In this document: in pieces, positions 5,283 through 64,000 of the stretch
Layout: every line of letters starts with the position of its first letter
Position numbering within the stretch: the first letter of the stretch is position 1
Assembly: GCA_050084515.1 (NCBI GenBank)
Contig: CM114271.1
Location: forward strand, 11,098,001-11,162,000
DNA from: Blasia pusilla
Lineage: Eukaryota
Direction of reading: 5' to 3'
Length of the DNA stretch: 64,000 bases
Translations under genes and position numbers: made by a program
The notes under the pieces: model-generated
Told to the model about the DNA's origin: nothing
Database searches by the model: none
Seen by the model: the letters and a program-made list of their open reading frames with translations, nothing else

Positions 5283-6609
5283 GATCGCGAGACAATTCAA
5301 GCTACCCATCAAGGCGACTGATCAAGTGATTCATCGTGGACATAGGTGGAGGCATTTCCAGAAAAGATGACGAGGAAAAAATCACAAGCCAATAAGTCTG
5401 GGAGCTTCACTCCGAAGTCCATTAGGACTCCTGCGTCAACATCTCCAAGGCCTCGTTCGGCGAATGAAATTAGGCAGCAGGAAATCGAGGAGCGGGAAAG
5501 GGAAGGGGAGATGCACAAACAGGAGGTTCTTGCGAGACGTGTTCAAGAGGCACTCGATAGACAGAACGCAGAGGCTGAGACGTCGCATGCCTTGAAGAAA
5601 AGTATCGCCGATTTAAAAGAGAGAAAAGAAGCGTGACGGGCGGGCGTCGGTGAGGAGAGCAGAATTGGCTAAAGCGAGGAGGGAAAAAGCGATAGCCATT
5701 GACGATAGCCCTGCCCGTCCAACCAAAAATGTTGAGATGCGGGAAATATCCCCGATGAAGTCCAGGGATACAATCAACATAGCGGAAACGCCAGAAGTTC
5801 AAATCACGGACGATGAGGTCATGAGGACCGCCAGCGTGGAGATGGTGGACATTGCCGAAGAAGCCGGAGAGCAGTCATTCTCGTCTCCAAGCCCGGAGGA
5901 AGACATCGACCTCTATCGGATCGACGAGTTCCCAATCGATTTGCCAGCTTCTGTCTCAGACAAGTCGGCTGGTCAAGAAACCGACCCAATTTTCGAGCGG
6001 GTAAGAGAGGATATGGGTTTTTTGAATTATGTGAATTCATTGGGAATTCAATGTAGCTTATTGATCTTGTCCCGGTTCTGACAGGTGGTAAAGCTGATGG
6101 CACTCATGGAGGGCCACAACGCCTCGAGGATTCCACTCTGCCGATTGCGGACAATGGAATACGTCCGCAAAATTCAGTCCGACGAGGACATCGCGAAGCT
6201 TAAACAATCGGCGGCGACAGCATCCTACGTCGATAGCTTTCCTCCCTTCTATGTTCAGCCTTACGACGAGCATGGAACGCAAGCCCTGGTTACGGAGGAG
6301 GACTTGGAAAAGCTTGACACATTCTGGAGGATGAGAGACCAGGATTTCAGAAGGCAAGTAGAGGGCACGGAATTCAGTTGGATGAGGAATCTGTATTTCT
6401 TCATCTGGGATGGAAATCACAGGTTTATGGCGTGGACCAAGTTTGCAGAGGAGCGGCCCAACTCCTTGGAGGCACATTTTTGCATGAAGGCAGTGGTCCT
6501 TCATCCATTCCCTCATCACATGGCCACGTTGGAGATGGCAATGCATGCCATGAACACGTGAGTATCTTCTTGCTGGGTCGGGACCGTTGTTGGGATGCTT
6601 TTGGCCAAA

Positions 6610-7210
6610 CGCAACTCGTCGGAGTCCGACGAGTTGCTCGATTGAGGAATGGGTTAGGTTTTTTTTTGTCGAAAGCAACTCGTCGGACTCCGACGAGTTG
6701 CTCGACTCGACGCTTTTTCACGATGTTTTTTGAAGAATGCAACTCGTCGAGTTGTTCAACTGACCACAGATTTAATAAGTTTTGTTGGCCCAAAGCAAAC
6801 CGTCGGAGTCCGACGGGTTGCTCGACTTGCCGCCTTTTCAGGATGTTTTTTGAAGAAAGCAACTCGTCGAACTCGGACGAGTTGTTTGACTAACCGCAGG
6901 TTTATTATGTTTTTTGCCTAAAGCAACCCGTCGGAGTCCGACGGGTTGCTTGCCTCGAAACTGTTTTTGGCCGAAATCAACTCGTCGGAGTCCGACGGGT
7001 TGCATTCGGAAGTTGGTTTGGCAAATTTCGCGTCAAATTGCAAGTTTCCATTCAATTGCGCAACTTGTCGGACCCCGACGGGTTGCTATGTTCACGTTAG
7101 TATGTTCAATTGCACAACCCGTCGGAGTCCGACGGGTTGAAACCAGGCATTAGCTCGTTCCTAGAATCTGACCTTGAGCTGTGACGACCCGTCGGAGTCC
7201 GACGGGTTGT
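6610..7210. repeat. Palindrome array in intron 2 of the ParB-MTase gene
   Basis: Perfect CAACCCGTCGGAGTCCGACGGGTTG at ~6924 and ~7115, plus CTC/GAG variants at ~6612 and ~6676. Confidence 0.9.
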
Positions 7211-11430: not shown

Positions 11431-12115
11431 TTCCCAACCTGTTAGATCGTCGTGGATGCAGGGTGGAAGAAAATCACTTCTAAAAATCTTTCCTTTCTTA
11501 TGGTGAGCTTTCTTACGGGTTGGGAGGGGTCCAGCTTCTCGCTTTCTCAGCCTCAGGATCTGAATGAAGGGACATCAGTTCCTCTTTACTCCAAACAGCT
11601 AACAATCTTTTGGTTCAATTATCCTCTCATGTGTTCACATTTCACAAAGTTGGTCTTGAGCATACACCATTCATAACCAACAGAAAGTTGGTTATGGAGC
11701 AATTCAGGGGAGGCCATGATGCAGGCAACAATCCCTGCAAAAAGAGAGGTTGGCATCCGGGTGGTCCTCCAACAAAAATACCCATGGGCACTGCTTTTTG
11801 TAGACCAAGATAGTTAATGTTAAGAAACTTAGGCTCACATGGAGAGTGATGGAAAAATGTTTGTAGTGGTCTTATGATGTCTACTTTTTTTTCGCCCCCA
11901 GTAAAAAGGAGGTTGTTTTAGGGCCAAATGTGGACCACTACCTACTCTCTTCTAGAGATTTCATGAATTTGAAAGGAAACAAAAATTTCAAATATGTCAA
12001 AAAGTTTTGAAGAGAGGAGGCGAATTTGGCCCTTTTTTTTTAAGAGAGACTCTCCTCTCTTCCTCTCCTCTCTTACTCTCTCCTGCCAGAATACCAGCCC
12101 CCGCCATCGTTGCAG

Positions 12116-13614
12116 GGATTGAACATTCATGAAAATGCCCTCTGCCCCAACATAAGTGGAGCAGAAAGTGTTCATTCCTCCTAGAGGTTGTCACAAGCAT
12201 GCCAACGAATTTCACTTGTGGAGGCATGCGAACAAGACCACGTAAGAGCAATGCTACAGTCTGCAGCATCCCATATCTTCCTCACAAAAGGCATAACAAA
12301 AGGAAGGGGTCTTGATCTCACGAGCTCTATGTCGTAGTATTTGTGAGATCTGGTGATGAAAAACTCTATGTGGAAGCCTTCAACTGGTGCGTAGCAGGAA
12401 CTCCCCTCGAGCAAGATGTACATATTGGTGGGGATATTTGTGGGCGCGTTTCAAGACGTCCAATACAGATGGTGGTAGAGCAGTCCGAGCGAGACTCGTG
12501 GAGACCACATAAGTATCAGGCAAGTGAAGAGCCAGCATGGAGGAACGAATCCAGTGAATGATTTGGATGAGGAAATTACGCCGCCCAGGTATTCGGGGAC
12601 CTCGAACTGCTCCCAAATCCGTGATGGAGTAACTTCTCCAAAATCAGTGAATGTTTTATTTCAAAAGCCCTCCGTTGCTGGAAGTTCGCAACATCCGGTC
12701 GTTGGGGTGGTTCAACAATATGGGATTCCGGTCATGGAAGTGGATTGCAACATGAAACGGTGGCATATATCTCGGAGCAACCCCGGACGTGGACCCACTT
12801 GCAGAGCATGATCTGATGGCATGAGGAGAGCATGCGGCACTTTCCTAAATAAGAATGCATAAGGAAGGATTTGGGCGACCCTTTGCCTGGGTTTTGGGGA
12901 CTCAAAACCTTTGATCGTTTCACGAGGACCGGGGATCAATTGAAGTACTTATTTTGCCCAAATGAATTTTGCGCTTTCCGCAAGTCTTATCCGGCTGCCA
13001 TTGGAGCTCCAAGGAATACCCCCACGATTTGGCCCATCGTCGCACGTACGAATTGGACTCAAGACGAAGTGGAAAATCTTATAAGTGCCGGTTTCAGACT
13101 CGTAGACGGAGGAAGTTCAGAGCATGTTTGCATTATAGAGACCTTTGCATTTCGTATTCAACCCAAGATTGACGTCAACATGTACCCGGAGAAGGTGGAT
13201 GATCTCAATCCACTATTTCTGTTTGAGTCTAGAAATGGGGTGAAGAGAAACAGAATGTGTAGGCCAACGGTGGAGAGAGCAAAGCGAATTGCATCAGGTC
13301 GAGAGGCAAAAATGGAGATCATCGCCACCAAAGATGTCCACAGTGGAAATGGAATAGGAAGGATGTATTGGGTCAGGAACAACACTGTAAATTCAAGTGT
13401 CACAAGGGTGTATGTGGTGCACCTCTGTTGCTTTCCCACATGTTCATGTGATGACTTTGTCCAAAGAGAGACAAGTGGCAAAAGGTATTTCCCTTGTAAG
13501 CACATGTACTATGTGTTGCTTGTAGTTTTAAGAGAGTCGGAGGTAGGAGTAGGAATCCACGAACCAATTCTCTCCCTTAAAGAAGTGCAAAGTATTTTAA
13601 ACAAACCACTTTGA
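12116..13614 (+). pseudogene. 3' exon of MULE transposase (catalytic E region + SWIM zinc finger), frameshifted
   Basis: Contains NISGAESVHSS and the SWIM motif PTCSCDDF...YFPCKHMYYV (CxC-x(n)-CxH). Closely similar to 42310-43819. Confidence 0.85.
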
Positions 13615-15019
13615 GGATGCAAAATGAGGTTTTAGACTGTACTTTCATTTTTCCAGAACCTTCACTTTGAGCTTGAACTCTATTCAGCCGAGGGCAAATG
13701 ATAGATTTTTTTCCAGACCTTGGATGGAAAAAGTGATTGGTTCCACACTTATGATTCCATTGATTTTTCAGTTTTCTAAATTTTGTCCAATTTGCAACTC
13801 GTCGGACTCAGAGGGGTTGCCAAAATGTGGAAGAGGAAAAAAAATTGTGGGAGTGCTTAAGAACTGAGCACAAAAGTGCAAAAAAAATCACACAAAAACT
13901 TTCCTCTCTTCAACCCAACGGAAACTCTCTTCAAATCACAGGAAACTCTTTAAAAAAAATATATCTATTTCGGTTGAAGGTAGTTTCCTCTCTCCTCTCT
14001 CTTCTCTTCCTCTCTTCCTCTCCTCTTACCACACCTTGCACGTTGTTGGGGGCGGCCATTGTTGTGTACCGCACTCCTTTATTTTTTGCTTCCGATGTTA
14101 TGACGTTGGGGGGTACGCCTCTGGAGGCTTTTTGGTTGTCCGCTACACTATGTGAGCGCGGAGTTGGAGTTCCTGCATCACGTTCAGAGGTGATTGCAGA
14201 GGAGGTGATGGACCTACCCTTGGAGTGGATGCTCGGGCCGTCTATGTCATATTCATGGCAGGCTGCAGTTGCTAGGATGGCGGAGATGCCTGCTAGACCC
14301 GCGATAGAGCTTTTAGTCTGCAACGCGTCTTGTTGGATTCAGGAGCATAACCTCTGATGTTGGGGAAAGCGTCATTCAGAGGATTGGGCTTGACGAGAGC
14401 CCATGTGGAGGGTTGTCCATTCCGAACAGAGACATCCTTGGGTGGAGCGAGTACCACATAGTATATTACCCGAAAGGAGGTCGTGGTGAGGATTCGCTCG
14501 AGACATCCTAGAGATGAGTCCGTGGTGCGAGCCAAGGCTATAGTGATTGATGCAGGGTCCTACGACATCTTGGTTGGTAGAGTAGTGTTATACCCGATGG
14601 GATTTTCCTTGGATTACTGGGAGGAGTCAGCGTCCTACAGACCAGGATGGCAGTCAAGTGATGGGCACCTTAGCTCATTATCCATTCGATTCACAAGTGT
14701 AGTGATCGAGCAATGGCCAGGAGAGATGGCGACCTTAGCAGCATTTAGGAGTGCCATCACTTGGCCTAATGATTTGATTGAGGGACATGTCCATGTAGAG
14801 GATACTCGCGTTCCTGACATTTCTATGGAGAGGAGTGTTATGGTAACCGCATCATTCCGTGGAGGAGAGGTGCCACCGTGGGGTTGGACTGAGGAGCTTC
14901 GACAATTGGCATATGAGCACGTGCAGACCGCGTGGAGCGAGGCGTTTGCCACGGAGCGTGATGGGTCTGAGGAACCCGAGGTAGCAATGAGTGCTACAAT
15001 GACACCCTTGGATACCACA

Positions 15020-15945
15020 CCCATTGTGTGGTGTATCCCGGAGGAGGGTATTCGATTGTTAGATCTCTTCGGAGGGATTAGCACTAGGTTAGCAGGAGTG
15101 CGAGTGCAGCAGTACGTGTATGTGGAGAGTGATGATGTTGCGAGGCGCCTCTCACTACGATATGTGGCGTAGTTACGCCTACGTTTTCCCGACTTGTTTT
15201 TTGCGTCCGCGGTATAAGGGTACCAGAGTTCCCTACCGAGGGATATTTTGTTGTTGGGGGTGCAGGACTTAGAGCGATTAGGCACCATTGATTTGGTCAT
15301 TGCCGGTTGGCCATGTCAAGGCCAATTGAGTGCTGGACAAGGCAGCGGGTTGGCTGACACTCGATCCAGGTTGTTTTGGGAGATATGGAGGGTCTTATGA
15401 CAATTGGAGGAGCACCAATCTCATTCTCCAGCCTACATTCTCGAGAATGTGCCGATCTTAGGAGACTCCAGGTCACGGGTGGTGACGAGTGCTAATCGGG
15501 TGCGTGTCTGGATCGGCCTAGCGGTGTTCTTGGATGCGACGAATGTAGGTTCTAGAGCCCATCACCCGTGTCTATGGTGGATCAACTTGGTGCCCTATGC
15601 GGTGTTATGGAGGGCGTATGCGAGAGTGGAGCACCCTCCCATTTGTTAGTGGATTCCATGTTGGATCCAGATTGCAGGCCACGAGCAGCCTTTCCCACAT
15701 TTGTGAGTTTTCCCGATTCCTCTGCACAAGGAGGCCGGTCCTGGCTTGGTTTGGGATGACCAGGTTCAGAGGTTGGTGGAGCCCAACGCCGACGTGAGAG
15801 AGTGGGCGATGGGATTTCCCACAAGAGTGACGGCACTCTTGTCAGTATCAGAGGCATCACGACGCCATGTCTTGGGTCAGGCGATGGACCTGAACTGCTT
15901 GACATGGATCTTCAGCTTGGGAGTGGCTGAGCAGCGTCGAATGAG
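15020..15945 (+). pseudogene. C5-cytosine DNA methyltransferase domain embedded in Gypsy pol
   Basis: In the same frame as the protease: motif I LLDLFGGI, II YVYVESD, IV IDLVIAGWPCQG (catalytic PC, 15311-15316), VI YILENV, VIII GSRAHHPCLWW (degenerate RxR), IX EPNADVREWAMGFP, X LGQAMDL. Several in-frame stops. Confidence 0.9.
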
Positions 15946-18374
15946 ATTGCGACAGATCACACTGGTTGGGTTGGTGAGCCCCATGCCTACTGAGACGGTG
16001 GAGGCAATGGCTGGGGGCGAGACCCGAGGAGATCGACACACCATGGGAGATCGGGAGAGACACCCTTGGACTTCTTGGGATGTTTTGCAGGTACGCTAGG
16101 AGATGATAGCCACAACATCGAGCGTGGTTCCGGGGACTGCATTTGGAGGAGATCAGAGTTTGCAGTTGGGTGTAGGAGAGCGGTCGAGTATTGTTGTTCG
16201 AGACGGGGTTGCACCATAGCAACCACCGATATCTACGTCGGAGAGACCTACCGTAGTCACGATAGAGACTTGGGAGCCACATATGGGCCCTAAGTTGACA
16301 GATGTGAGCCATGTTCGCGCATTCATGGGATTGGCGAATTTCTATCGGCGGTACGTCAAGGGATTCAATTCGATTGCGAAGCCGTTAATCTTGCTCACCA
16401 AGGTGGATCACGAGTGGCACTAGGGGGATGAGCAGGAGCGAGTATTTCATTTACTCAAGGACAGGTTGACCTCTGCGCCCATCTTGAGGAGACCGATCAG
16501 GGGGTATCCTTTCCAATTGCACACATATTGGAGCATGTTGGGGCTTGGAGCGGTGCTCACCCAGCATGATGATGAGGGTAGAGAGTTCGTGGTGGCTTAC
16601 ACTAGCCGCTCGAACAACGCTGCAGAGGCAAAGTACAGCTCGTATGAGGGTGAGTGCTTGGATGTAGTGTGGGCTGTTGCGCATTTCAGGTGTAACTTAT
16701 TCGGCAACCCCTTTACCATCATCACTAATCATCAACCACTAAAGTGGTTGATGGAGTCCGACAAGCTTTCAGGGAAGCTTGCGAGATGGGCTCTGTTTTT
16801 TGAGGAGTATGATTTTCAGGTGGTAGATAGACCTGGGACGCTCAACCAAGATGCAGATGGGTTGAGTCGTAACCCATGCGCGAGTCAGCGAGATGCGACT
16901 GGAGCTCGATGGCATGGAGAGAGTGATGAGAAGTCAGTGCTAGGATGGCACGCGTGAGCCTATTTAGGCATGTTGGCTATGGAGAGCTAGAGTGTGGAGA
17001 CTTCGATGGCGAGGTCTAGTGGAGAGTCCTTGGATCCCGAGCCGAGTGAGGAGACAACAAGTGGCCGAGATATTCATGATGATGGAGTAGTCTTGGAGTA
17101 CCTTTGTACTGGCAGCGTTACGAGCACCGTGGTCGCTAAAGAGCGGGATCGGATCCTATAGCGGGCCAGACGGTTCCGGTGGGAGGGGACACATGTTTTA
17201 AGGGTTTGGGAGGATGGTAGAGTACGCGTAGTGCCGCATCCTTTGCAGAGAGCACGACTAGTGCAGCATGCCCATGAGGAGTTGGGTCACTTTGGGGTGA
17301 AGCGAACGTAGAGCTTGCTCTAGATTCAATATTGGTGGCGAGGCATGCAGATTGACGTTCAGCAGTTTGTTGCTAGGTGCATGGTGTGTGATCGGGTCCG
17401 AGCATCCTTCAATGCTCTGACTCCACAGTTGCATCCATTACCGATCATGGGCTTAGGGTATAGATGGAGTTTCGATTTTGCAGGACCTTTGCCTTTGACG
17501 AATCGTCATAGTCGTTATGTGTTGGTGATGATTGAGCACTTCTCGAAGTGGATCGAGTTGGTTGCATTGCCTGACAAAGCGAGTGAGGGAGTAGCTTATG
17601 CCTTCCTTGACAGAGTTTTGAGTCATTGTGGCGCACCGGCTGAGGTGTTGACAGACCAAGGTACCGAGTTTCGCGGTGAGTTCCACGCCTTGTGTGATTA
17701 GGCGTTGATCAACCACCGCACGACTTCGAAAGATCATCCCGAGGCGGATGGATTAGCAGAGAGAGTTGTGCAGACAGTGAAGAGAGGTTTATGCAAGTAT
17801 GGTTTGCAAAGAGGTCACCTAGGAGATTGGGACCTTCAGTTTCCGTGGTTGGCCATGGGATACAGATTCATCAGACAGGAAGGCATCCTTAGCGTCTTTT
17901 TCACCGTACTTGCTACTTTATGGCCGAGATCCAAATTCACCTACGGCCATTCGTCGAGATGTTGGTGAGGTTTCGGACCTGATGATCCAGATGTATGGAT
18001 GCGAGCATGTTCTGAGAGGGTTGAGTTGTTTTAGAGAGTGATGCCCATGGCGTTCGAGAACTTGGCGATTGCGCAACATCGGGATACGTTGAGGAATGCG
18101 ACTATTCGGGATGGTGGTTATCAACCAACTATTTGGAGGTCTCACCCAAGGAGATTACGTCTACTTGTAGTAGACGACACCGACGACGTTGGATGTGACT
18201 GAAGGGTGCATTATCCTGAGAGTGCGTGACGTTTTGCCATGCGGTGTTCTCTTGCTGGAGGGGCCGCGATGGTATGGTATGGAAGGACCATGTGCATAAT
18301 TGTGCACCATATCACCTTCCTAACATTGATGGTACAGTAGATCCGAGCTTAGCAATAGTTCCTACAGGATTGCA

Positions 18375-18510
18375 TTGTATGTTGTGTGGTTTGCTCGTGG
18401 TGCGGCCACGATGCTAGTCTGTGATGGATGTTCGAGAGGTTGGCATATGGCATGTCAGACGCGACCTCTCACTAAGGTTCCTCGGGGACGATGGATGTGT
18501 CCTTGATGTA
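18375..18510 (+). pseudogene. PHD finger at the integrase C-terminus
   Basis: CMLCG...MLVCDGCSRGWHMACQT..L..VPRGRWMCP*C gives a C4HC3 pattern, with one frameshift. Confidence 0.85.
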
Positions 18511-18703
18511 CATAAAGGAGATACTAGGCAGGTTTCGATTCTGACTTTTTCTATGACATGGATGACAAGAAGGCGACTAACGATGGGGCCACATGAGCAA
18601 CCGACCTTTGTGCTCTTAGCGTCCTAGAGATGTATGTCGTGGTAGGTAGGGATAGATGGCTATCAGGAGTTAGAGGGACCTAACCACCTACTAGGGGGGC
18701 GAT

Positions 18704-19469
18704 TAGAGATATTTTGGTACTTCTCACCTCTGTGTTTGGATGCATGAGTTAGCATGGGATCGTGCGTGTTTGTGTGTGTGTTCGGTGACAATGATATATG
18801 TTGTGTAGCAATGTGTATGCACACGAAAACTATCATGTCTTTTAGGATAGATCGATGAGATCTAGTAGAGCGCCTTTGTGAGAAGTGGAGGATAGGCTCA
18901 ATAGGTTTAGGATGACTTGCTGAGGCCTAAGGAAACTTGAGAGAGTAGGTTTTCCTTTCGTTTCGGCTCATTTGGAGCCATATTGAGAAACTTACTATTT
19001 TAGGTAAGTACCATTTTGAGTATTTGATCGACTTTCTATTTTTGTTAAATGACCCTTGACCTCCTACTTTAGGTCAAGAGCCAAGGAGATGACTTGGGAG
19101 AATAGGTTACAATGGAGAGAGCTTGGGAGAGGGAAGGGGTATACCTTAAGGAGATAGAGCTTGAGAGCTCATTCTCTCTTTGTTGAACCTCTTGGCATGA
19201 GGCGGCGGAGCTATGGTCCCTTGCCTTGTGAGTGTAACCCAAGCCTCTCATTAGGAGAGTGGGTTTCGTTTGACATGAGAGAGAGTGCACACCTTTGAGA
19301 GCTGTGGTGTGAGATGGTGTAGAGAGATTGGATCTTACTTTATTGGAGATATTTTGGTACTTCTCGCCTCTATGTTTGGATGCCATGAGTTAGCATAGGA
19401 TTGTGCGTGTTTGTGTGTGTGTTCGGTGACAGTGATGTATGTTGTGTAGCGATGTGTATGCGCACGATA
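18704..19469 (+). repeat. 3' terminal A-B-A structure of DNMT-Gypsy (A ~125 bp at 18704-18828 and 19344-19469)
   Basis: Direct repeat t(g/a)gagatattttggtac...gcacga(c)a. The B-A portion recurs on the minus strand at 61751-62402. Confidence 0.8.
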
Positions 19470-19661
19470 AGATTGAGGAGTGGAGTTTTAGGCCGGGTGT
19501 GCCGCTTTTACTCTTATTTTTGTTATGTGATCTCGATGTATATATATGAGTTGATTTTTTGTACTTGTGTGGATCTACTTGTATGTTGGGGGATATTAAT
19601 GTTGTGTGGTGTGGATGTGACCAGCGATATATATTGTGTAGCGATGTGTATGTGCACGACA

Positions 19662-20299: not shown

Positions 20300-22491
20300 G
20301 TTTTTGCAATTAAGAAGGCACTCTCCCATAATAATGTAGATTTTTTGCAATTAAAAAAAACACCAAAAGAGAATTATGTGACTAAATTTGAAAAAGTAGG
20401 AAAAAGTAGAAGGGATTTCTTATTTTTTGAAGAGGGAAATAAGAAATAGGAAAAGAGAAAAAATGAAAAAATGAAAAAAAAAATTTATTATAATATTTTT
20501 GAAGGGTAGGTTCGGTAGCTTGAACGTATCCCTACCCTAAGACCCACCTAACCGCGGCCGTCGGCGATCTGTATCAGGTCTCCATCCAACGGTTGGATGT
20601 AAGTGGCCGTTGGATTGGCATCGAACGGTGGAGACCGCCATGCTGTTGTCTTCGCCGGCCCAAGCCGACTCTGCACTCATTGCAGGCCCTTGGCGTCTCT
20701 ACCCCCTTCCCCCTCCCTTGAGTCGACACTCCTGGTCGAATGGGGAGAGGGATCAAACTTCGCTCTCCCCTCCACTTCCCTTCCGCTCTCCCCTCCACTT
20801 TCCTCTCGCTCGTTCGCTCTCGACTCGCGCTCATTCTCCTTTTGCTGTCACTACATCCTCTTTGCTCCACGGCGCTCTCCCGGGTACACAACTATAGAGG
20901 CACGCTCGAGTGCAGTCGCGCTTAAGTGCAGGTGTGCTTGAGTACAGGCATGCTCGAGTGCATGCGCGCTAGAGTATAGGCGAGGTCGAGCGGCTTTCAA
21001 AGTTGCCTCAAATTTTTCCCGATGCGTGTTCCTCGACGCGTTCAGAGAGGGCCTTTGTTATTTCGTTTCAGTTACTTCCATTTGGTTGCGCTTGGGCTCA
21101 AGGTCCCCTGCTCAACGGTGGCTCTAGCTCCTGCCCACTCGCTCCTTGAATTTTTGCTCCCTAGGTCCCGCTTGCATCTGCCTTCTTCCTTGGTTTTTCC
21201 TTCGCCCTTTCTACGCTTAGCTGTGCTTGACAGGATGCTCACTTTGCGGAAGTTTTAGGTGGTTTCTCAATGGGTGGTCCAACTGTTTGTCCAATAGCTT
21301 TGCATTAAGCCACACACATCAAGCTTGTAGCTCTCCGACTGTCGAGGGTGGGAGGGGGTCAAAGCTCTTGTGAGTGGCCTTGGCATGTGCTATGGGCTAG
21401 TGTTGTTGAAGTTGTGCAATTTTCATGACTTGTAGCTTGCTCCTTGGTCTAAGAGTACTCAAATTGAAGACAAGAGAAAGGGCAACATGGAGACGTAGGA
21501 GACCCTTTACACCGAAATTCTTTTTCGATGAAGCCACCTTGATTACTCTTTCCCTTTCCTTGGGTGGACTTCCTTGTTGTTACTTTTGTTGCCAGACCGG
21601 TCGTTTTGGTTGATGCCGTATATTATGCGCTTGTGTGTTGGGGGTGCTTGCAGGTTGGGAGTTGAAGTTGTTGGAGCGTGTGTGGTGATGCAGCACTTAG
21701 AGAATCGGGAGTAGGATGAGCTGAACCAAGAGTTGGAGGAGCTGCTGGAGGTTCCGAAACAGCAATAGGAGTTGCCAAAGGAGCCGAATGGGGAGTTGGA
21801 GCTGCTAAAGGAGCTGACTCGAGAGTGGGAGTTGCTGAGCAATCGGACCTGCCAAAGGAGCCGAATCGGGAGCTGGAGCTACTAAAGGAGCCAACTCGAG
21901 AGTGGGAGCTGCCGATCATTGTGTAGAGGACTTGAAATGCAGGAACAACAAAATAGCAACATTAAGAGTAGAGCTCGAAGACACACAATATCTATTGCAT
22001 GTGTAAATGATATATTCGTCAATACAGCTCATAAGCGTACCAATAGCTAGAGCAATGGCTTGTAACATTTCATTGAATGAGTAAAGATCCGATGTTACCT
22101 ACGTTCAAATGAGACATGATGTTACTTGAGGAGAAGTGCGCATAGTGAGTTTGTAACACATAAATACTTATACTCTATAAGGTCTTGTAAGCCGTGACAC
22201 CTTTTCGAAAAGCAAGAGGTCCATTAAATCAACGGATCTCCCTCATGCAACGGATTTGACTATCTTCGAGAACAGAAAATTCGAATGATTAAAAAAAGAA
22301 CTGTTTTCACGGCGGAAGTTCCAAAACCCTAAGGACCCCCAACGGCTTAAAAAAAACCCATCCAAAAATTAAGAATCGCAGAACTACATATCAGACCGTT
22401 TGGAAACGCCGCATTTAGTTGGGCCAAAATACCACGTGTCAGATGCTCACGTGTTTAGGTGGGGAGAAGGCACTCTCCCATAGTAGTATAG
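20300..22491 (-). mobile_element. Probable non-autonomous Helitron remnants (two 5' termini on minus strand)
   Basis: Minus strand reads TCTATACTACTATGGGAGAGTGCCTTC at ~22490 and TCTACATTATTATGGGAGAGTGCCTTC at ~20340, resembling the mini-Helitron start at 31125. Internal 15-bp (20900-20990) and ~72-bp (21765-21912) tandem repeats. Confidence 0.4.
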
Positions 22492-39789: not shown

Positions 39790-42700
39790 TATTGTCTCTG
39801 GCCTTTAAAATACTCAAGCACATTCTTGTCAACGAGTTGCCGCCCACGTACGATGGTAATTGCATTTTTGAGTTGCCTCCACTTGCTGGTCCTGCTCAAA
39901 AGAAAGATGGAGGACGCTTGAAGGGTATGGACAGAAAGTCTGATTGTCATCGATGATGCAGGCTTCAATGGACTAGTGCTTCAATTCCAGATGGTCCTTG
40001 GATTGTTTCTCGCCGCCAATGCGTTGGAGCCATGGAGTGTAGAAGTCTAAGCTGCCCGTATCTAGAGCGCAATGGGCGAGTCAATACGTCGCAATTTCCC
40101 CCTAAGAATGGAGAAAGTCCATATGAGGTTGGTGCGATCATTCCGCCGGGAGGCCATCGATGTCCTCATTGTCAAGCATCCCTTTTCTGCGTTGGAGCGT
40201 GTCCTACATACATATTTTTCATTGTGCACGACTTTAGTTCTACGCCCGAGTACACCAGGCTGGCACTTCATGTTTGCACATTCATCCTATTACCAATGCA
40301 ATTCAGAGACACATCAAGGAGGATGTGGCAAAGAAAGTGTCCGAGGTATATAGAAACTCTCCGAGATCAAAGCCCAGAATGATCAAGTTAACAAAAACAT
40401 CACAAATTTGTGAACAACTGCTTGGAATCCCTGGGCAGGGCGAGATCACCGCTTCTGAGGAGAAACAACTCTGGGAAAATCTCGCATTTCTCGCTGATCC
40501 TGAATGCTTCAGGAATTTGCTGCATCAAGACGGGTATTGGATGGAAAGACGGCGGAAATGGATGCCATTGCCAGAATCAAGGCCAACTCCAGATTTCCAT
40601 TTATTCAGAGATGGAAGTTCATGGGCTAGGGAGGCGAAGGATCCAAGGCTTATGTCTTCAAAATGTCAACGACAGGGCCGTCGAGTGGTCTTGATCTTAT
40701 ATATCGAATGAGGGAAGGGGAAGATCTTTACAACAGTTGGGTAAGCTTTGATATTTGCTACAGAGTGGTGAATGGATGGTTGACCGTGGGTGCTCACGTT
40801 TATGACCATGTGGAGAAGGGACTCAAAACTATATTTGTCTGTTAGGTAAAAGCAGAAGACGTTGGCAGTTTGAAGATATGTTGGTTACTCTTATTGGAAG
40901 TGGTGAAGGAAAACATAAGGCCACCTCCGGAAATTTATGGATTCATGGTGCACAATGAAAAACCTAGATGGATTGCTATCAGGGAAGTGTTATGGAGTGG
41001 ACAGGTTCAACCAGAGAGGGAAAGGTCAGATGCTTTCCATTGGCAACAATCTGTGACCCGATCCACCAAATCTTGCATCAAGGAGAATAATAGGACACAG
41101 CATGTCACTCTACTCCAATACTGCAAGGACAACAAAACCTTGAAACAGGCCATGGAGTGCCAAGAAGATCTTCACGGGTGGTGGAGGAAGCATGCGATTG
41201 AGGGGAAGTACAAAGAGTTGTGCTCTTGGCTCAATTGGTGGAATGTACGAATGAGACAATGGGGAAATTTCATGCGGAAGGTGAGTTCAATATTTTGTCC
41301 TATCGAGCTCATGCTGAGAATTTTTTGAAAAGTTGCAGCTCAAGTTGAGAAGCGTGGGCACTAGAAGGATTTCAAAACGAAGAAACCAAGCAACCGGTCG
41401 GATGCGACAGGTTGCCTGAGTATGCAACCCGTCAGAAACCAACGCGTTGCGTGAATGTACAACCAGTCAAAAACCGAAGGGTTGCATCAAGAATGTTTGC
41501 GACATGATGCACGAGGAATGTTTGTGCAACCCGTCGAAACTCGACTGGTTGCATGAGTGTGCAACATGTTGAATCCTGAGAGGTTGCAAGTTGCATGCAC
41601 ACAAGGCCTGCAAATAGTTTGACCCGGATCGGTTGCAAGCCGCAAGGCTACGAGTTAACTTGGTCTGCAACCCATGGGATTCCGACAAGTTGCGTTTATC
41701 TACAACCAGTGGGATTCCGACTAGTTGCGTCTGTATGCGACTCCTTGCATTCAGACAGGTTTCGGCTGTCTCCAAGTCGCATCCAGACACATTGCATCAG
41801 TTCAAGTTAACTCGAACTTGTCGAATTCCAATAGTTGCAAAGCTTCGTGTGTGGACACTTCTTGCAAGCCAACGGAATCCGATAGGTTGCACAAGGAGTT
41901 TTGAGACCGGACCGGCCTGCTTCTCACAACCCGTCCGATTCCGATGGGTGGTAGTAGCACGTTCTTGAGTGCTACGTTGCAGTAAAAGGTTATTGAGACA
42001 TTCCAGGGATATCTCTGACTTGCAACCCGTTTCAAGTCGGAGGCTAGAAAATCCATGTGCGATTCGTTGGATTCCGATGACTTGCACTTGGATCTTCCAG
42101 CCCAGAGTGGCCAAAGTTACTTGCAACCCGTGTAAATCCGATAGGTTGCAGTAGGTGGTTCCTGGGTGTTGCAACACGTCAAAAACCGACGGGTCGCAGA
42201 GTCATTCATGGGATGCCTCTGACTTGCAACCCCTCTGGTTCCGACAGGTAGCTTTTTTCTTTGCTCATAGAGCTATTTTCGTTCCCTTCTCACAATGCCG
42301 TTGTTGCAGGGATTGAACATTCATGAAAATGCCCTCTGCCCCAACATAAGTGGAGCAGAAAGTGTTCATTCCTCCTGGAGGTCGTCACAAGCATGCCAAA
42401 GAATTTCACTTGTGGAGGCATGCCAACAAGACCACGCAAGAGCAATGCTACAGTCTGCAACATCCCATATCTTCCTCACAAAAGGCATAACAAAAGGAAA
42501 GGGGCCTTCGATTTATGAGCTCTATGTCAAGGCGGCTGTGAGATCTGGTGATGAGAAACTCTATGTGGAAGCCTTCAATCAATGTGTAGTAGGAACTCCC
42601 CTCGAGCAAGATGTCCACATTGGTGGGGATATTCGTGGGCGTGTTTCAAGACGTCTCATACAGATGGTGGTAGAGCACTCCGATGCAAGATTCGTGGAGA

Positions 42701-43819
42701 CCAGATAAGTATCTTGACTTCAGGCAAGTGAAGAGGCACCATCGAGGAACAAACCCAGTGATTGATTTGGATGAAGAAATTATGCCGCCCAGGTATTCGG
42801 AGACCACAGATTGCTCCCAACTCCGAGTTGCAGTAACTTCTCCAAAATCAGTGAATGTTTTATTTCAAAAGCCCTCTGTTGCTGGAATTTTGCAACATCC
42901 GATCGTTGGGGTGGTTCAACAATATGGGATTCCGGTCATCGAGGTGGATTGCAAACTCAAAAGGTGGCATATATCTCGGAGCAACCCTAGACCAGTACCC
43001 ACTTGCAAGGCCGGATGTGATGGCATTAGGAGAGCATACGACACTTTCCTAAATAAGAACTGTACAAGGACTGGACGACCACTGCCTAGATTTTAGGGAG
43101 TCAAAACCTTTGATCGTTTCACGAGGACTAGGGATCAATTGAAGTACTTCTTCTACCCAAATGAATCTTGCACTTTCCAAAAGTCTTATCCGGCTGCCAT
43201 TGGAGCTCTAGGTAATACCCCCACGATTTGGCCCATTTCCGCAGGTTCGAATTGCACTCAGGATAAAGTGGACAATCTTACAAGTTCCAATTTCAGAGTC
43301 GCAGACGGAGGAAGTTTGGAGCATGTTCGCATTACAGAGACCTTCGCATTTCGTATTCAACCCAAGATTGATGTCAACATGTACCCAGAGAAGGTGGATG
43401 ATCTCAATCCACTATTTCTATTTGAGTCTAGAAATGGGGTGAAGAGAAACAGAATGTGTAGGCCAACGGTGGAGAGAGCAAAGCGAATCGCATAAGCTCG
43501 GGAGGCAAACATGGAAATCATCGCCACAAAAGATGTCTAGAGTGGCAATGGAATAGGAACAGGAAGGATGTATTGGGTCAGGAACAAAATTGTAAATTCA
43601 AGTGTCACAGGGGTGTATGTGGTGCACATCTGTTGCTTTCCCACATGTTCTTGTGATGACTTTGTCCAAAGAGAGACAAGTGGGAAAAGGTATTTCCCTT
43701 GCAAGCACATGTATTATGTGTTGCTTGTAGTTTTAAGAGAGTCGGAGGTAGGAGTAGGAATCCACCAACCAATTCTGTCCCTCAAAGAAGTGCAAAGTAT
43801 TTTAAACAAACCACTTTGA
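39790..43819 (+). pseudogene. Mutator-like (MULE) transposase: GCM/WRKY-like zinc-binding domain, DDE core, SWIM finger; intron 41281-42309
   Basis: RQCVGAMECRSLSCPYL...CPHCQASLFCVGAC...RLALHV..HIHP; WVSFDICYR (D1); YGFMVHN (D2 position, mutated); ERSDAFHWQQS (C/D-xx-H); NISGAESVH (E); PTCSCDDF..CKHMYYV (SWIM). Multiple stops and frameshifts. Confidence 0.85.
41388..42252. repeat. Degenerate palindrome array filling the transposase intron
   Basis: Repeated gcaacc(c/g)gtc....cgac(a/g)ggttgc between the GTGAGT donor (41281) and the TGCAG acceptor (42309). Confidence 0.85.
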
Positions 43820-44217
43820 GGATGAAAAATGAGGTCTTAGATTGTACTTTCATTTGCTAGAACCTTCACTTTGAGCTTGAACTCTATTCAGCCCAAGGCA
43901 AATGATAGATTTTTTCCGGACGATGGAAAAAGTGATTTGTTCCACATTTATGATTTCACTGATTTTTTAGTTTTTTAAATTTTGTGCAAATTGCAAACCG
44001 TCGGATTCAGATGGGTTGCCAAAATGTGGAAGAGGAAAAAAAAATCAGTGGGACTGCCTAAGCATTGAGAACAAAAGTGCAAAAAAATTCACAAAAAAAC
44101 TTTCCTCTCTTCAACCCAACAGAAACTCTCTTCAAATCACATGAAACTCTCTTAAAAAAAAAGTATCTCTTTGGGTTAAAGTTAGTTTCCTCTCTTCCTC
44201 TCCTCTTACCACTCCTC

Positions 44218-44370
44218 CATCCTTGTTTGACTCCAGTGTTGGAAGATAAAGTTTTAGATTTACCCCTCTTAATGGCAATCTGTGCAAACACCTGAGCATA
44301 TAAGACCTTGATTGTTGTAATTTGTTGTGATGGGACACCCAACTCTTCATATAAGCACAAAATTTCTAGC
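44218..44370 (-). mobile_element. Non-LTR (LINE) reverse transcriptase fragment
   Basis: LYEELGVPSQQITTIKVLY...SNTGVKQG, the conserved region preceding RT motif GV.QG. Confidence 0.6.
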
Positions 44371-58745: not shown

Positions 58746-59629
58746 GGTCTTGAGTGTAACTTCGTCTTGAGGTGTTGGATGGGGTGAGGATAGTTTTGTT
58801 GTGTTAAGAACATTGTTTCTCATGACTTTCTTTTTTAGGTCTTTCACAACCGGGTGACTTGTTTAGCAGGTTACCCACCCCTGGTAACCTGTGCGTGCAA
58901 GTTACTATGAGGATTGCTATTTTTAGGGGAAAGAGCCTTTTGGCTTTTCCCAAACCTATATAAGGGAGAGAGATGGCTTTCCCAAGCCATCTTTCTCATG
59001 TTGGGCCGTTGGAGCACCTTCCTTGCTCGGTGTGAGGTAGGAACTATAGTGCTACCGTTCAGATTCCCTCATAGCGGAGGATGGACGAGGCTCAATATGT
59101 CAATGTAGATTTAGGAGTGGAGTTTTAGGTCGGGTGTGTCTTTTTTTACTCTTGTTTTTAAATGAGAAAGATGCGAGGAGGTAGGGGGAATTCGTTGTTT
59201 GTAGGTAGGCAAGGAAGTTGCCTTGGTTGGGAGCCACTAGAGATGTTGGTTGGCGTTTTCTTTGTCAATTTTTTGTTTGGAAGGTTGTGGGTGGAAGCGC
59301 TATCCATTTTCTCATAGATTTTCTTGGTATGGATTGACGTGGGACAGTAGTCGAGTGTGGTGCTGAGAGTGGTATCGACGAAAATAGCGATGCATAGCGG
59401 GAATATTGGGAAAGGAAATATCATGTCTAGATCTTGTAGCTGCTTTGCCCTGAAGGAGGCTCAAAGATTAGGGTGTAGCTATAGGAGACTTCAAGAACAG
59501 ACTACGTAGCCAAAGGCAGGGTAGAGAGGAGGCTCGATTGGTCGGAAGTGAAAGCGTGCGCATCTAAAGAAAAACTAGGGGTAGGTGGGAGTTCCGTGGC
59601 GCGAATGAGGTTACTCCCGTGGCGCAACC

Positions 59630-60750
59630 ACTATGCTAGTCTATGATGGATGTTCCAGACAATGGTGTATAGCATGTACGTCACCTCTCACTAGGATTCC
59701 TCGAGGACGATGGATGTGCCCCAGATGTCGTGACCCTCATAACCAAACAACACCAAATAGGCGCCAAGCGGAACATCAGAACTCAAGTGGACTCACGCTA
59801 CAATGCTTGCGCTTTGGAGAGGCGTTTGGAAAGGTCTCTTGGAAAAGTCCAAGAGACAAAATGCGGAATAGAGTTGTGCGTTTCATGCATTAGTGGTTGC
59901 GACCAGGAAACCTAGACCAAACGCGAGCCAAGACTTGAGACGAGTTGAGTCTTGGAAGGTTGGTTGCCAAAGAGGTGAGAACCAATTTTGGAACACGATT
60001 AGCGTTTGGGGAATTTGACTGTGTTTTGGACCATGACGTTTAGCCCCAAGATGTGTTTGAAACAAATAAGAATGCATTGGAAAGCTTATCTTGAGAAAAT
60101 TTCAACGCACCAAAGATCTTAGCAAATGCATGAGTACAGACTGAGATATCGGCCAAAAAAAACTGTGAGAGCAATCGGGTTGAGGGGCGATTGGAGAGGC
60201 TCGGGTGTCTTTCCCTAAATATAGGGCAAGTCTTCGAGACTTGCCCATGTTGTAAACCGCAAAACAAGGAAGGTTGAGTTTGATGAGAGACCGAGACGAG
60301 AACTCGGAAAGTTAGCTTGTTGATTGATCCAAGACTCGACTAACCAGAGTGTGTGTTTGGATGCAGATCAACGTTGAGAGAGTGACCTACTGAATGCACA
60401 CCTCTGCAACAACAAGATTAACATTCAAGGAGAGTAGGCGCACGATACCAGATGTACATAGAGTAGGTAGCTATAGATTCTAACTTGTGTCTATGATATG
60501 GATGACAAGAAGGCGACTAATGATGGGGCTACATGAGCATCCAACCTTTTTGCTTTTAGCGTCCTAGAGATGTATGTCATGGTAGGTAGGGATAGATGGC
60601 TATCTGGAGTTAGAGGGACCTAACCACCAGGTAGGGGACCAATTGGAGATATTTTGGTACTTATTGTCTCTATGTTTGGATGCCATGGCCCATGAGTTAG
60701 CATGGGATCGTGCGTGTCGTTTGTGTGTTCGATGATAGCAATGCATATTG
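59630..60750 (+). mobile_element. 3' remnant of PHD-Gypsy (PHD, PPT, A repeat) interrupted by a solo LTR
   Basis: MLVYDGCSRQWCIAC..IPRGRWMCPRC; 60453-60750 is colinear with 18507-18805. Confidence 0.8.
59726..60447 (+). mobile_element. Solo LTR (722 bp, internally deleted) with 5-bp TSD
   Basis: TGTCGTGACC...GGCGCACGATA flanked by ccaga at 59721-59725 and 60448-60452. Confidence 0.9.
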
Positions 60751-60753
60751 TGT

Positions 60754-62903
60754 TGTTGTGTGCATACACATCGCTATACAACCCACATCACTGGTCATAT
60801 CTACATACCACACAACAACAATCTTCCCCAACACATAGGTAGATCCACACATAAATGAAACATACTCACGCATATACACTGGGATTCCACAACAAAATCA
60901 AGAGTAGTAAAAATGGCTCATCCGACCTAAAAATCCACTCATGAATCTACATCGGCATATTGAACCACATCCATCCTCTGCTATGAGGGAATCCGGATGC
61001 TAGTACCCTAACTCCTACACACCTGCACACGTCTATGCAAGTGAGGCGCTCCTAAGGCTTAACATGAGAAAGATGGCTTGGGAAATCCATCTTCCTCAAT
61101 CTTATATCCTTAGGAAGAGCCAAAAGGCTCTTCCCCCAAAAATAGCCCTACCAAGAGTAATCTGTGTGCATAAGTTACCGGGTGACCATTAACTTGGTCA
61201 ACAGGTCACCTGCCGGACTAAAACCAAAATAGGAAAATCGCCATGAACGACGTTCTCGACACAACAGACTTGTTGCCAATCTCATTCAATATGAGAGACT
61301 TGGGAATGCTAAAGGGTCCCGGGATACGGATTGAGTTGACTAGTGATACGCCAATTTTTTGTCGACCCTACAATCTGATATCTCGAGACGAAGTTACACC
61401 CAAATAACCCGTTGACTCTCTATGCCGTCGACACGATCAAACTCTACCTACAACAGAATAAGATGTGACAATTATCATGCGCATACACATTGCTACACAA
61501 CCCACATTGCTGGTCACATCTACATACCATACAACATCAATCTTCCCCAACATACGGGTAGACCCACACATAAATGAAACATACTCACGCATATATCAGA
61601 ATAAGATGTGACAATTATCATGCGCATACACATTGCTACACAACCCACATTGCTGGTCACATCTACATACCATATAACATCAATCTTCCCCAACATACGG
61701 GTAGATCCACACATAAATGAAACATACTCACCCATATACACTGGGACCCCTGTCGTGTGCATACACATCGCTACACAACATATATCGCTATCACTGAACA
61801 CACACACACAAACACGCACGATCCCATGCTAACTCATGGCATCCAAACACAGAGGCGAGAAGTACCAAAATATCTCCAATAAAGTAAGATCCAATCTCTC
61901 TCTATACCATCTCACACCATAACTCTCAAAGGTGTGCACTCTCTCTCATGTCAAACCAAACCCACTCTCCTAATGAGAGGTTTGGGTTATACTCGCAAGG
62001 CAAGGAACCATAGCTCCGCCGCCTCATGGCAAGAGGTTCAACAACGAGGGAATGACCTCTCAAGCTCTCTCTCCTTGAGGTATACCCCTCCCCTATCCCA
62101 AGCTCTCTCCATGGTAACCTATTCTTCCAAGTCACCTTCTTGGCTCTTGACATGATGTAGGAGGTCAAGGGCCACTTACCAAAAATATAAAGTCGATCAT
62201 ATACTCAAAATGGTACTTACCTAAAATAGTAAACTCAATATGGCTCCAAATGAGTCGAAACGAAGGGGAAACCTGCTCTCTCAGGTTTTGCGGGCCTCAG
62301 CAGGTCATCGTCAACCTACTGAGCCTGTCCTCCACTACTCACGAAGGCGCTCTACTAGATCTCACCGATCTATCCTAAAAGACGTGACAATTGTTGTGCG
62401 CATTGTCGTGCGAATCCACATCGTCATACAACATACATCGCTGACATACCATACTCACATACATACATAACATAGACGAGAGCATCCACAAACATAAGTG
62501 TACCATAACTGAAATCTATGAAAGACCTACTGTCATAAAACACCTATAGAATCACATACAATCGAGCCAAACCCACTCCACGATGGGAGAATCTAGGTCG
62601 CAGCTTGCGGGAAACACCATAGCCAAGAGCTCTACTCACTACCAAGGCTAACTCCCAACGCAACAGGCTCAACTCAAAGAACTAACTGTTCTTTGAGTGC
62701 ACTCCACCTTATATCCTCCAACCTAAGAGCGGGCCCTACTAGAAAAGTCACCTACTAGCACACTATACTCTACGACATAATCCGTATGGTCATGACAGCT
62801 GTCGTGCGAATCCACATCGTCATACAACATACATCACTGACATACCATACTCACATACATACATAACATAGATGAGAGCATCCACAAACATGAGTGTACC
62901 ACA
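60754..62903 (-). repeat. Chain of three A-B-A terminal structures from related PHD-Gypsy subfamilies
   Basis: A' at 62800-62903 and 62404-62507; A at 61751-61878 plus a stub at 62392-62402; A'' at 60754-60891 and two tandem ~140-bp copies at 61473-61750. Confidence 0.75.
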
Positions 62904-64000
62904 ACTCGCCCCCCTAACTGGCGGTTAGGTCCCTCTAACTCCCACGTAGCCCTATACATCTACTACATGCTATACACCTTCGTGGGTGCACGAATCAGAA
63001 GGTCGGGTGCTAGGTTGCCCCATCATTAGTCGCACATCTGTAATCCATATCATGCAAAGATCAAGTCATCTGCCTCTCCTAAATACATCAAGGACAAACC
63101 CACCTTCTAGTAGGAACAACATCCATACGTGGAGTCAAACACATCATGTGCCAACCCCTAGAACACCGATCACACACCAACATATGGGCTGCGTTACTAG
63201 CCGACCCACACAACATGCACCTCAAGCTAGCACGTATCATGGCTAAGCTTGGATCAACATTACCATCCACATTTGGAAGATGACATAGCGCACAATTATG
63301 CACATGGTCCTTCCAAACAACTCCATCACGACCCTCCAACATGAGAACTCCAGAAGCTAACACCTCGCGCACTCGTAAAATAGTACGGCCTGCCGTCACA
63401 TCCAACATTGTCGGTGCAATCTGCTGCAAATAGACATAGTCCTCCACATGGAACCTACAAATCGATGGTCGATAACCTCCATCATGAATGGTTGCATACC
63501 GCAACGTATCTCTATGTTGAGCAATGGCAAGATTCTCAAAGGCTGTTGGCATAACTCTCCGAAAGAGCTCTGCCTGCTGAGAACACACCCTCATCCACAT
63601 CTCTGGGTCATCAAGGTTCACCACCTCACTAGACTCCCGACAAATTGCTGCTGGCAAGTCTGGATCTCGGCCGTATAACAAAAAATAAGGTGAGAAGGAA
63701 TCCAAGGTGCTTGGCGACTGAACCTTTACCCAATTGCTAACCATGGCAACTGAATATCCCAGTCTCCAAGATGCCCCTTCTGTAGGCCATACTTGCGCAA
63801 TGCCCTCTTCACCGTCTAAACCACACGCTCAGCCAAACCATCCGCCTCTGGATGATCTTGAGACGTGGTCCGATGATCAATCAACGCCTTGTCACACAAG
63901 ACCTGAAACTCACCCTGAAACTCTGTACCCTGGTTGGTCAACACTTGAGCTGGTGCACCAAAATGACTAAGCACTCTATCAAGAAACGCGTACGTCGCTC
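62904..64000 (-). mobile_element. Gypsy integrase C-terminal half + PHD finger + PPT (element continues beyond the window end)
   Basis: ORF 63088-63744: FSPYFLLYGRDP...CMLCGSASNAAHMLVCDRCSRGWHMMCLTPRMDVVPTRRWVCP. Homologous to 17590-18510. PPT AGGGGGGCGAG at ~62905-62915. Confidence 0.9.

Follow-up and report, generated by a model that had tools for sequence, protein, structure and literature searches.

The 64,000-nucleotide stretch of Blasia pusilla DNA analyzed here (GenBank contig CM114271.1, positions 11,098,001 to 11,162,000; hereafter the window, numbered from its first letter) carries at 14055-19470 on the plus strand a decayed Ty3/Gypsy retrotransposon with a Dnmt3-like C5 cytosine methyltransferase (DNMT) between its protease and its polymerase and a PHD finger behind its integrase. 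We consider it very probable that this copy is the dead relic of a bryophyte family, here called Gypsy-Dnmt3-PHD, whose members encode Gag, protease (PR) and DNMT ahead of a leaky UAG codon, and reverse transcriptase (RT), RNase H (RH), integrase (IN) and the PHD finger beyond it.

The window copy is one colinear element, in which a gag remnant, protease, DNMT, RT remnant, RNase H, integrase, PHD finger and 3' repeats follow one another. A single reading frame on the plus strand, 14243-17968, is interrupted by stop codons only (19 in all: 13 TAG, 2 TAA and 4 TGA), and the integrase's C-terminus together with the PHD finger (17872-18510) is reached via at least three frameshifts between about 17872 and 18150. 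Pfam searches of single stop-to-stop pieces left the DNMT unrecognized in two of three pieces and the protease unrecognized; translation through the stops, with X at each, and comparison with homologues resolved both. On the read-through translation, Pfam recognizes DNA_methylase (PF00145, E = 1.8e-8), RT_RNaseH (E = 1.2e-29), Integrase_H2C2 (E = 3.9e-15) and rve (E = 6.8e-12), and the last 58 codons, in another frame, match PHD (PF00628, E = 7.5e-8).

An initial annotation, made from the letters of the window, had described a Gypsy element with a C5 DNMT and with a PHD finger after the integrase, and had proposed profile searches with PF00145 and PF00628. The domains and their order bear this out: both profiles match, and every feature it listed is found in the order given on the plus strand, by Pfam match or motif coordinate. 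Two of its details need amendment. The element is longer than the proposed 14327-18510, beginning with the gag remnant and ending with the 3' repeats, and the order described as in-frame holds as far as the integrase core, the rest of the integrase and the PHD finger lying past the frameshifts.

Layout of the element and of its relatives

The gag remnant, a C-terminal piece in a frame other than that of pol, occupies 14055-14309 and was located from frame translations and by tblastn with residues 521-602 of the Marchantia protein P0005 (41% identity, E = 4e-9). The aspartic protease follows at 14324-14620, with LLDSGA at 14330-14347; it aligns by BLASTP to the Marchantia protein P0010 from residue 147, where relatives match Asp_protease_2. 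The DNMT, matched by PF00145, spans 15026-15940 (family hidden Markov model envelope, residues 262-566 of P0001) and contains five in-frame stops. Its motifs I (DLFGGIS, 15062-15082), IV (GWPCQG, 15305-15322), VI (ENV, within 15437-15454), VIII (15548-15580), IX (15794-15817) and X (15872-15895) stand in the normal order, motif II too being where the initial annotation had put it, so that the domain is unrearranged, and it is in frame with the protease and RNase H.

Beyond the DNMT, comparison with P0010 and with the second open reading frame (ORF) of the metagenome locus L059 identifies an RT remnant at 16220-16423, in which the N-terminus of ORF2 is fused directly to the RT thumb. RNase H lies at 16427-16810 (Pfam RT_RNaseH at P0001 residues 756-856, RT_RNaseH_2 at residues 729-826). 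The integrase, supported by Pfam and by tblastn with residues 305-912 of L059 ORF2, extends over 17246-18150, with the H2C2 module at 17246-17404, the catalytic core at 17459-17740 and a frameshifted C-terminal part from about 17872; relative to transcribed relatives, this part has indels at 17872, 17979 and 18145. The PHD finger at its end (18405-18506), recognized by PF00628 and in translation, has lost its first cysteine pair. Three repeats complete the element: B1 (18702-18829, 91% identical to 19342-19470), the long terminal repeat-like 3' repeat A2 (18830-19341; alignment to relatives stops at the start of their A2) and B2 (19342-19470), which repeat comparison marks as the 3' end. Pfam finds no RVT_1 domain in the window copy, and no chromodomain (Chromo) in the window copy or in ORF2 of L059 or of a second metagenome locus, L079, the PHD finger being found instead.

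With the DNMT stretch as query, 41 proteins were matched (best E = 4.5e-103), a likeness well outside what chance would give. Liverworts supply the best matches (Calypogeia fissa and Marchantia polymorpha; E about 1e-103, 52-55% identity), and the moss Sphagnum fallax is also represented. Marchantia P0005 consists of a Gag with a CCHC knuckle, an LLDSGAQ protease and the DNMT, and then ends; Marchantia P0010 runs from the DNMT through RVT_1 to RNase H; Sphagnum P0026 and Calypogeia P0002 fit the same order. Metagenome contigs scanned with DNMT-derived family patterns gave 150 relatives, from which 80 loci were kept. Most of these are decayed (72 of the 80 lack an ORF of at least 400 amino acids), and a few are well preserved. 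L059 is intact, with an ORF1 of 1369 amino acids (protease and DNMT), one TAG, and an ORF2 of 1047 amino acids (RVT_1, RNase H, integrase and PHD finger); L079 has its protease-DNMT ORF, TAG and ORF2 intact, and a third locus, L011, is nearly intact. Intact relatives are about 9.1 kb long.

The relatives also reveal the arrangement of the repeats. A repeat of about 340 bp, A, stands at the 5' end and has a second copy some 8.75 kb downstream (six loci), and B1, the roughly 115 bp before the second A, recurs directly after it as B2 with 93-95% identity in all four metagenome loci compared. The layout is thus A1-coding-B1-A2-B2, of which the window copy retains the 3' set only, B1-A2-B2; a search for direct repeats around the window copy found no flanking pair, owing to its 5' truncation and not to an absence of repeats from the family. 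The ends are TG..CA, and target duplications of 4 bp flank three of three independent insertions. Assignment to Ty3/Gypsy follows from the order PR-RT-RNase H-IN with a DDE integrase (the RT core, lost from the window copy, is recognized as RVT_1 in L059, L079, L011 and P0010) and from terminal direct repeats with TG..CA ends and short target duplications, to which the extra B repeat after A2 is added.

The methyltransferase is of the Dnmt3 type. By sequence (phmmer), the closest solved chains are DNMT3A, 3B and 3C (E = 1.7e-8 to 3e-7), ahead of HaeIII (E = 1e-3), plant DRM (E = 2.6e-3), DNMT2 (E = 0.02-0.09) and HhaI (E = 0.11). The half of L059 ORF1 that runs from protease to DNMT was modelled with AlphaFold (mean predicted local distance difference test score 72.5, exceeding 85 over most of the DNMT), and all Foldseek matches listed for this model are the catalytic domains of DNMT3A, 3B and 3C (E = 1.2e-16, template modelling score 0.82 on the target). 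The catalytic domain type is therefore that of host DNMT3 enzymes, but the N-terminal PWWP and ADD domains of those enzymes, encoded in a multi-exon gene, have no match in ORF1 of L059, L079 or L011 or in P0005, and the domain here lies in a retrotransposon ORF. Across 24 better-preserved sequences GWPCQG, the E and V of ENV and the residues of motif VIII are invariant, and the N of ENV is kept in at least 90%. Between L059 and L079, the ratio of nonsynonymous to synonymous substitution rates (dN/dS) is 0.14 for the DNMT, 0.13 for the protease, 0.05 for the PHD finger and 0.03 for RT, RNase H and integrase, all rough values with dS saturated (0.8-2.6). These patterns indicate purifying selection on the DNMT within the family.

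In both L059 and L079, ORF2 ends with an intact PHD finger (residues 990-1034); the finger is also present in the Marchantia proteins P0065 and P0066. Its nearest solved counterparts are CHD4 PHD1/2, PHF12, ATXR5, PHD1 of KDM5B and KDM5A, PHF21A, DPF3, UHRF1 and AIRE. Most of these fingers read the histone H3 tail unmethylated at K4, and none of the top matches is what we take to be a classic aromatic-cage reader of H3K4me3. In available descriptions of chromoviruses, a chromatin-reader module likewise sits on the C-terminus of a DDE integrase and is presumed to steer insertion; there the reader is a chromodomain rather than a PHD finger, and no DNMT is present. Since the PHD finger stands where chromoviruses have their chromodomain, tethering of the integrase to H3 tails appears, by analogy, to be its likeliest role.

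Base composition was compared over window 14055-19470, L007 8511-17714, L022 1680-10805 and the coding parts of L059, L079 and L011. The coding-strand GC skew is positive family-wide, at 0.23-0.26 in decayed copies and 0.11-0.17 in intact ones, and CpG observed/expected ranges from 0.28 to 0.78. Strand-specific C-to-T editing was considered as a cause of the skew and rejected; intact relatives already reach 0.11-0.17, so the skew is mostly compositional.

Relation to methyltransferase-bearing elements of algae

The closest described counterpart is KnitGypsy-Dnmt3 of Klebsormidium nitens (de Mendoza et al., 2018; PMC5890265). As far as that source describes it, KnitGypsy-Dnmt3 likewise encodes a Gypsy-type polyprotein with an unrearranged Dnmt3-like DNMT, is intronless and multi-copy, shows purifying selection on its DNMT and has A-coding-B-A-B repeats, a likeness established for the bryophyte family against the published description rather than the sequence. 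Its host is a charophyte alga, as opposed to the liverworts and mosses here, and neither a PHD finger (0 occurrences) nor a stop between DNMT and RT appears in the text of PMC5890265, so far as available. According to the same text, SymbioDIRS-Dnmt3 of Symbiodinium is likewise a retrotransposon that holds a DNMT of the Dnmt3 type and has A-coding-B-A-B repeats, a layout ascribed there to DIRS elements; it has a tyrosine recombinase, whereas the present family has a DDE integrase, TG..CA ends and 4-bp duplications. We group the bryophyte family with the Klebsormidium elements on account of the shared repeat layout, Dnmt3 type and Gypsy pol. The proposal that the lineage persisted from charophytes into land plants, made in the initial annotation, receives indirect support from these common traits, which are a match to a description and not to a sequence.

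A second layout came to light through the L059 DNMT domain, which as a query returned 2883 cluster representatives at E <= 1e-3, 852 at E <= 1e-10 and 269 at E <= 1e-30. All eight proteins checked by Pfam (P0032, P0035, P0069, P0082, P0087, P0096, P0113 and P0143) have the order RT-RNaseH-DNMT-IN-PHD in one ORF of 1.6-3.2 thousand residues; among them is the 'pol' of the chlorophyte Scenedesmus sp. PABB004. Metagenome proteins of this kind are numerous. These elements resemble the bryophyte family in their Dnmt3-like domain (about 31% identity to the window copy and 40% to L059), in related RNase H and integrase domains and in the same C-terminal PHD finger, and differ from it in having the DNMT between RNase H and integrase within one long ORF. 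We computed a quick, unrooted maximum-likelihood tree of 80 DNMT domains, with layouts labelled by the search that had found each protein and with P0026, P0029, P0065 and P0066 dropped beforehand as partial or gappy. A single branch (Shimodaira-Hasegawa-like approximate likelihood ratio test, SH-aLRT, 100) separates the two layouts, and the window domain groups with L011, Calypogeia and Marchantia.

These relationships can be read in more than one way. The bryophyte family might have gained its Dnmt3 domain independently of KnitGypsy-Dnmt3, with no persistence from charophytes into land plants. In the available text of PMC5890265 and of a preprint (10.64898/2026.05.21.726589), the capture of DNMTs by retrotransposons is a recurrent event, and PHD-bearing Gypsy elements show two DNMT placements, before RT in bryophytes and between RNase H and integrase in Scenedesmus and the metagenomes, which the branch with SH-aLRT 100 holds apart. 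Against such convergence, KnitGypsy-Dnmt3 and the bryophyte family have in common a Gypsy pol, an unrearranged Dnmt3 and A-coding-B-A-B repeats, which are rarely combined, and the integrase-PHD end is common to both placements; we regard convergence as unlikely. A further reading, which we put forward tentatively and at somewhat less than even confidence, is that Gypsy elements with a Dnmt3 writer and a PHD reader constitute one old green-plant lineage, extending from chlorophyte algae, with the DNMT between RNase H and integrase, to bryophytes, in which the DNMT would have moved to the Gag-PR end upstream of a leaky UAG and would be made in Gag-like excess, so that it could accompany the new DNA within the particle.

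Decay, transcription and the stop after the methyltransferase

The window copy is a dead relic, as first proposed: it is 5'-truncated, carries 18 acquired stops and at least three frameshifts, and has lost its RT core. The truncation, which coincides with the end of an unrelated repeat some 1.9 kb long, lies at about 14031-14040 and has removed the 5' repeat and all but the remnant of gag. The RT fingers and palm, about 280 residues in relatives, are deleted exactly in frame at 16297|16298, so that residues of about 26-304 of L059 ORF2 and 695-937 of P0010 have no counterpart in the window; this explains why only the thumb of RT had been noticed.

To examine transcription, reads of three RNA sequencing runs with the same species label were aligned to the window copy at a likeness of at least 80%. 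Each run yielded 5660-6434 reads, mostly 80-95% alike, and no more than 11-20 per run reached a likeness of 99% or above; the window copy is thus barely or not expressed, while its relatives are. Nearly all RNA reads carry another letter at two of its acquired stops. First mates map to the minus strand about ten-fold more often than to the plus strand in all 30 bins, and in most stranded libraries minus-strand first mates represent sense RNA. Their depth is 43-98 over the DNMT and 115-206 from RNase H to the PHD finger. Relatives of the window copy are transcribed in the sense direction across the whole element, the DNMT included.

These reads bear on the missing RT core. The deletion is exact and in frame, and the family is highly repeated (DNA contigs of run X1 give 170580 records at a likeness of at least 80%), as might befit a non-autonomous, RT-less subfamily copied in trans, of which the window copy would be a member, instead of a complete copy whose RT was lost once it had inserted. 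The same junction is seen in no other copy, however, and at 16298 a number of RNA reads (68 in run X20 and 78 in run X22) depart upstream into RT-like letters that are missing from the window, so that the deletion is private to the window copy or to a minority. In a copy that is 5'-truncated and heavily decayed one extra deletion is unremarkable, and we find an RT-less subfamily quite improbable.

One stop codon of the window copy has a different history. A TAG stands at the homologous codon between DNMT and RT in L059, L079, L011 and the window (16217-16219), so one of the 19 stops in the window is native. The six bases that follow are CAG TTA in L059, CAA TCA in L079 and CAA CCA in both L011 and the window (TAG CAA CCA, 16217-16225, plus strand), and all four sequences fit UAG_CAR_YYA, whose six bases after the stop bring about read-through in tobamoviruses and in other viruses of plants (Firth and Brierley, 2012, in the text of PMC3542737 available). 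We infer that this codon, which forms the boundary between ORF1 and ORF2, is a programmed read-through site. A stop is present at the junction in 38 of 38 further loci (25 TAG and 13 TAA). Both anchors are present in 56 loci, and the 38 are those in which the downstream one begins at residue 1; the other 18 fall outside the count. In Marchantia, the gene models P0003 and P0005 terminate after the DNMT domain. The initial annotation had placed the DNMT inside pol. It does lie within the element, as the C-terminal domain of ORF1 (Gag-PR-DNMT) upstream of the conserved UAG that precedes RT-RH-IN-PHD, and therefore outside pol proper.

Were the stop itself a product of decay, active elements would make a single Gag-PR-DNMT-RT-RH-IN-PHD polyprotein. 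The poor preservation of most loci, 72 of 80 being without an ORF of at least 400 amino acids, and the TAA that replaces TAG in 13 of the 38 loci lend this some color. Yet the 2416 codons of L059 and L079 are otherwise free of stops and both loci carry TAG at the same codon, the models P0003 and P0005 both end after the DNMT, and a stop occurs in every locus inspected, across subfamilies 32-68% identical to P0005. We judge such an origin of the stop to be very improbable.

In the read-through model, most ribosomes would stop at the UAG and release Gag-PR-DNMT, and a minority, aided by the CAR-YYA context, would continue into the RT-RH-IN-PHD extension. The methyltransferase would consequently be produced in an excess like that of Gag and could act on the newly made DNA of the element itself, a role proposed for the algal elements. 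In the position of the chromovirus chromodomain, the PHD finger would probably tether the integrase to H3 tails, most likely those unmethylated at K4. The arrangement resembles tobamovirus type I read-through and the gammaretrovirus gag-UAG-pol, as presented in the available part of PMC3542737, in that an in-frame UAG parts an abundant upstream product from a polymerase extension. It differs in that the upstream product of the bryophyte family includes an enzyme, the DNMT, beyond the structural and protease parts.

Several points, along with the saturation of dS, tell against this overall picture. The case for read-through comes from sequence; CAA CCC, which departs from CAR-YYA at the last base, follows the stop in the 38 further loci and is the form of the commonest metagenome subfamily; and the strict pattern TAGCARYYA near the ORF junction matched 3 of the 56 loci with both anchors. 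(The anchors of the window copy were not adjacent in this test, owing to the RT deletion.) The RNA reads at 80-95% likeness may derive from decayed copies or read-through transcripts and are no proof of an active element. None of the homology searches returned a Klebsormidium protein. Finally, metagenome loci retrieved by DNMT patterns cannot show a DNMT in every copy of the family, and some of these loci represent the same place in different metagenomes (for example L007 and L034), so that the counts are not all independent.

A less biased retrieval used the integrase-PHD end as its query against longer proteins; it gave three matches only, because the window copy is so decayed, and one of them, Marchantia P0065, also holds a DNMT. 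That the DNMT is a one-off capture or chimera, a host DNMT3 fragment or separate insertion confined to this copy, has next to nothing to recommend it: within the window only this copy shows the domain (of the two further copies described below, one runs off the window and the other is a fragment), but here protease, DNMT and RNase H share one frame and order, the same order recurs without internal boundaries in the Marchantia, Calypogeia and Sphagnum proteins and the 80 metagenome loci, P0065 was found by its integrase-PHD end alone, and RNA reads of relatives span the DNMT continuously. The initial annotation had named such a capture or insertion as what would overturn it; the DNMT instead occupies the same place in the bryophyte proteins and metagenome loci, and is a fixed part of the family.

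P0065 (Mp_7g09570) and P0066, annotated as Marchantia 'genes', are themselves internally deleted or juxtaposed pieces of elements, comprising a protease end, partial DNMT, integrase end and PHD finger, and could be mistaken for host DNMT or PHD genes.

Other copies in the window and meaning of the family

The family had been called multi-copy from related integrase/PHD ends near 59630 and 63088-64000. Both are real, at 59588-59749 (+) and 63998-63085 (-), and belong to further copies that add to the relatives found elsewhere. Copy 2 (61753-64000, minus strand) is a second decayed copy with integrase, PHD finger, A2 and B2, identified by blastn, by a stop-ridden translation and by tblastn of L059 ORF2 residues 731-1034 to 63998-63085. 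Its upstream part, the site of any DNMT, falls past the end of the window; its 62403-61753 is 90% identical to 18817-19467 of the first copy. Copy 3 (59588-60770, plus strand; blastn and tblastn) is represented by fragments, namely the PHD piece at 59588-59749 and a post-PHD/B1 stretch at 60451-60770, with another repeat inserted between them. An isolated fragment of the family's RT N-terminus lies at 61279-61395 (+) and matches P0010 residues 724-753 by tblastn (73% identity) and L059 ORF2 residues 51-89.

The 3' ends of the copies lie in a mosaic. Beyond B2 of the first copy, 19470-19661 contains a further B-like piece (40-95 bases), and the stretches beside copies 2 and 3 (60754-60948 and 61475-61789) are similar, in part in inverted orientation. 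The unrelated 1.9-kb repeat that adjoins the 5' break of the element, at 12103-14030, has an 89% identical copy at 42297-44230. It holds an ORF (12853-13614) with a weak SWIM zinc-finger match (E = 0.019) and probably belongs to another transposon. Elsewhere in the window, three copies of a 77-base unit, 68-87% alike and rich in GGAGC(T/C)GC words, occupy 21731-21914, and 2-1938 and 7450-5644 form a large inverted repeat, about 1.9 kb long and 75% identical, inside which tandem repeats lie near 548-1023 and 6590-7003.

In open-access papers and bioRxiv, we found no report of a bryophyte DNMT-bearing Gypsy element or of a plant Gypsy element ending in a PHD finger, and the DNMT-retrotransposon literature found there leaves the Marchantia gene identifiers of the family unmentioned. 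As far as that literature was available in text, the only organisms with described DNMT-bearing retrotransposons are Symbiodinium, Klebsormidium, Cymbomonas and Euglena. PHD, methyltransferase and Marchantia all go unmentioned in the survey of plant LTR retrotransposons by Neumann et al. (2019). The available text of the 2026 preprint (10.64898/2026.05.21.726589) contains the phrase 'streptophytes (Gypsy-DNMT3)', which Klebsormidium alone would fit. The placement of the DNMT before a leaky stop and the PHD finger may be new variants relative to the algal elements.

The family has a practical consequence for genome annotation. The gene sets of Marchantia, Calypogeia and Sphagnum label its ORFs as hypothetical proteins or DNA cytosine methyltransferases, and these can inflate counts of host DNMTs.

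DNA methylation is the main route by which plants silence transposons, and a transposon with its own de novo methyltransferase is therefore a paradox, one hitherto known from descriptions in dinoflagellates and a single charophyte alga. DNMT-bearing Gypsy elements are widespread in bryophytes, where they appear to be under purifying selection and are still transcribed, and intact first ORFs exist in Marchantia, a genetically tractable model liverwort. In the bryophyte family the enzyme is carried on the Gag-PR product, which would be the abundant one if read-through operates as modelled, and the integrase ends in a PHD finger rather than a chromodomain. If these elements do form one old lineage, the question of why a transposon carries a transposon-silencing enzyme would become testable by land-plant genetics.

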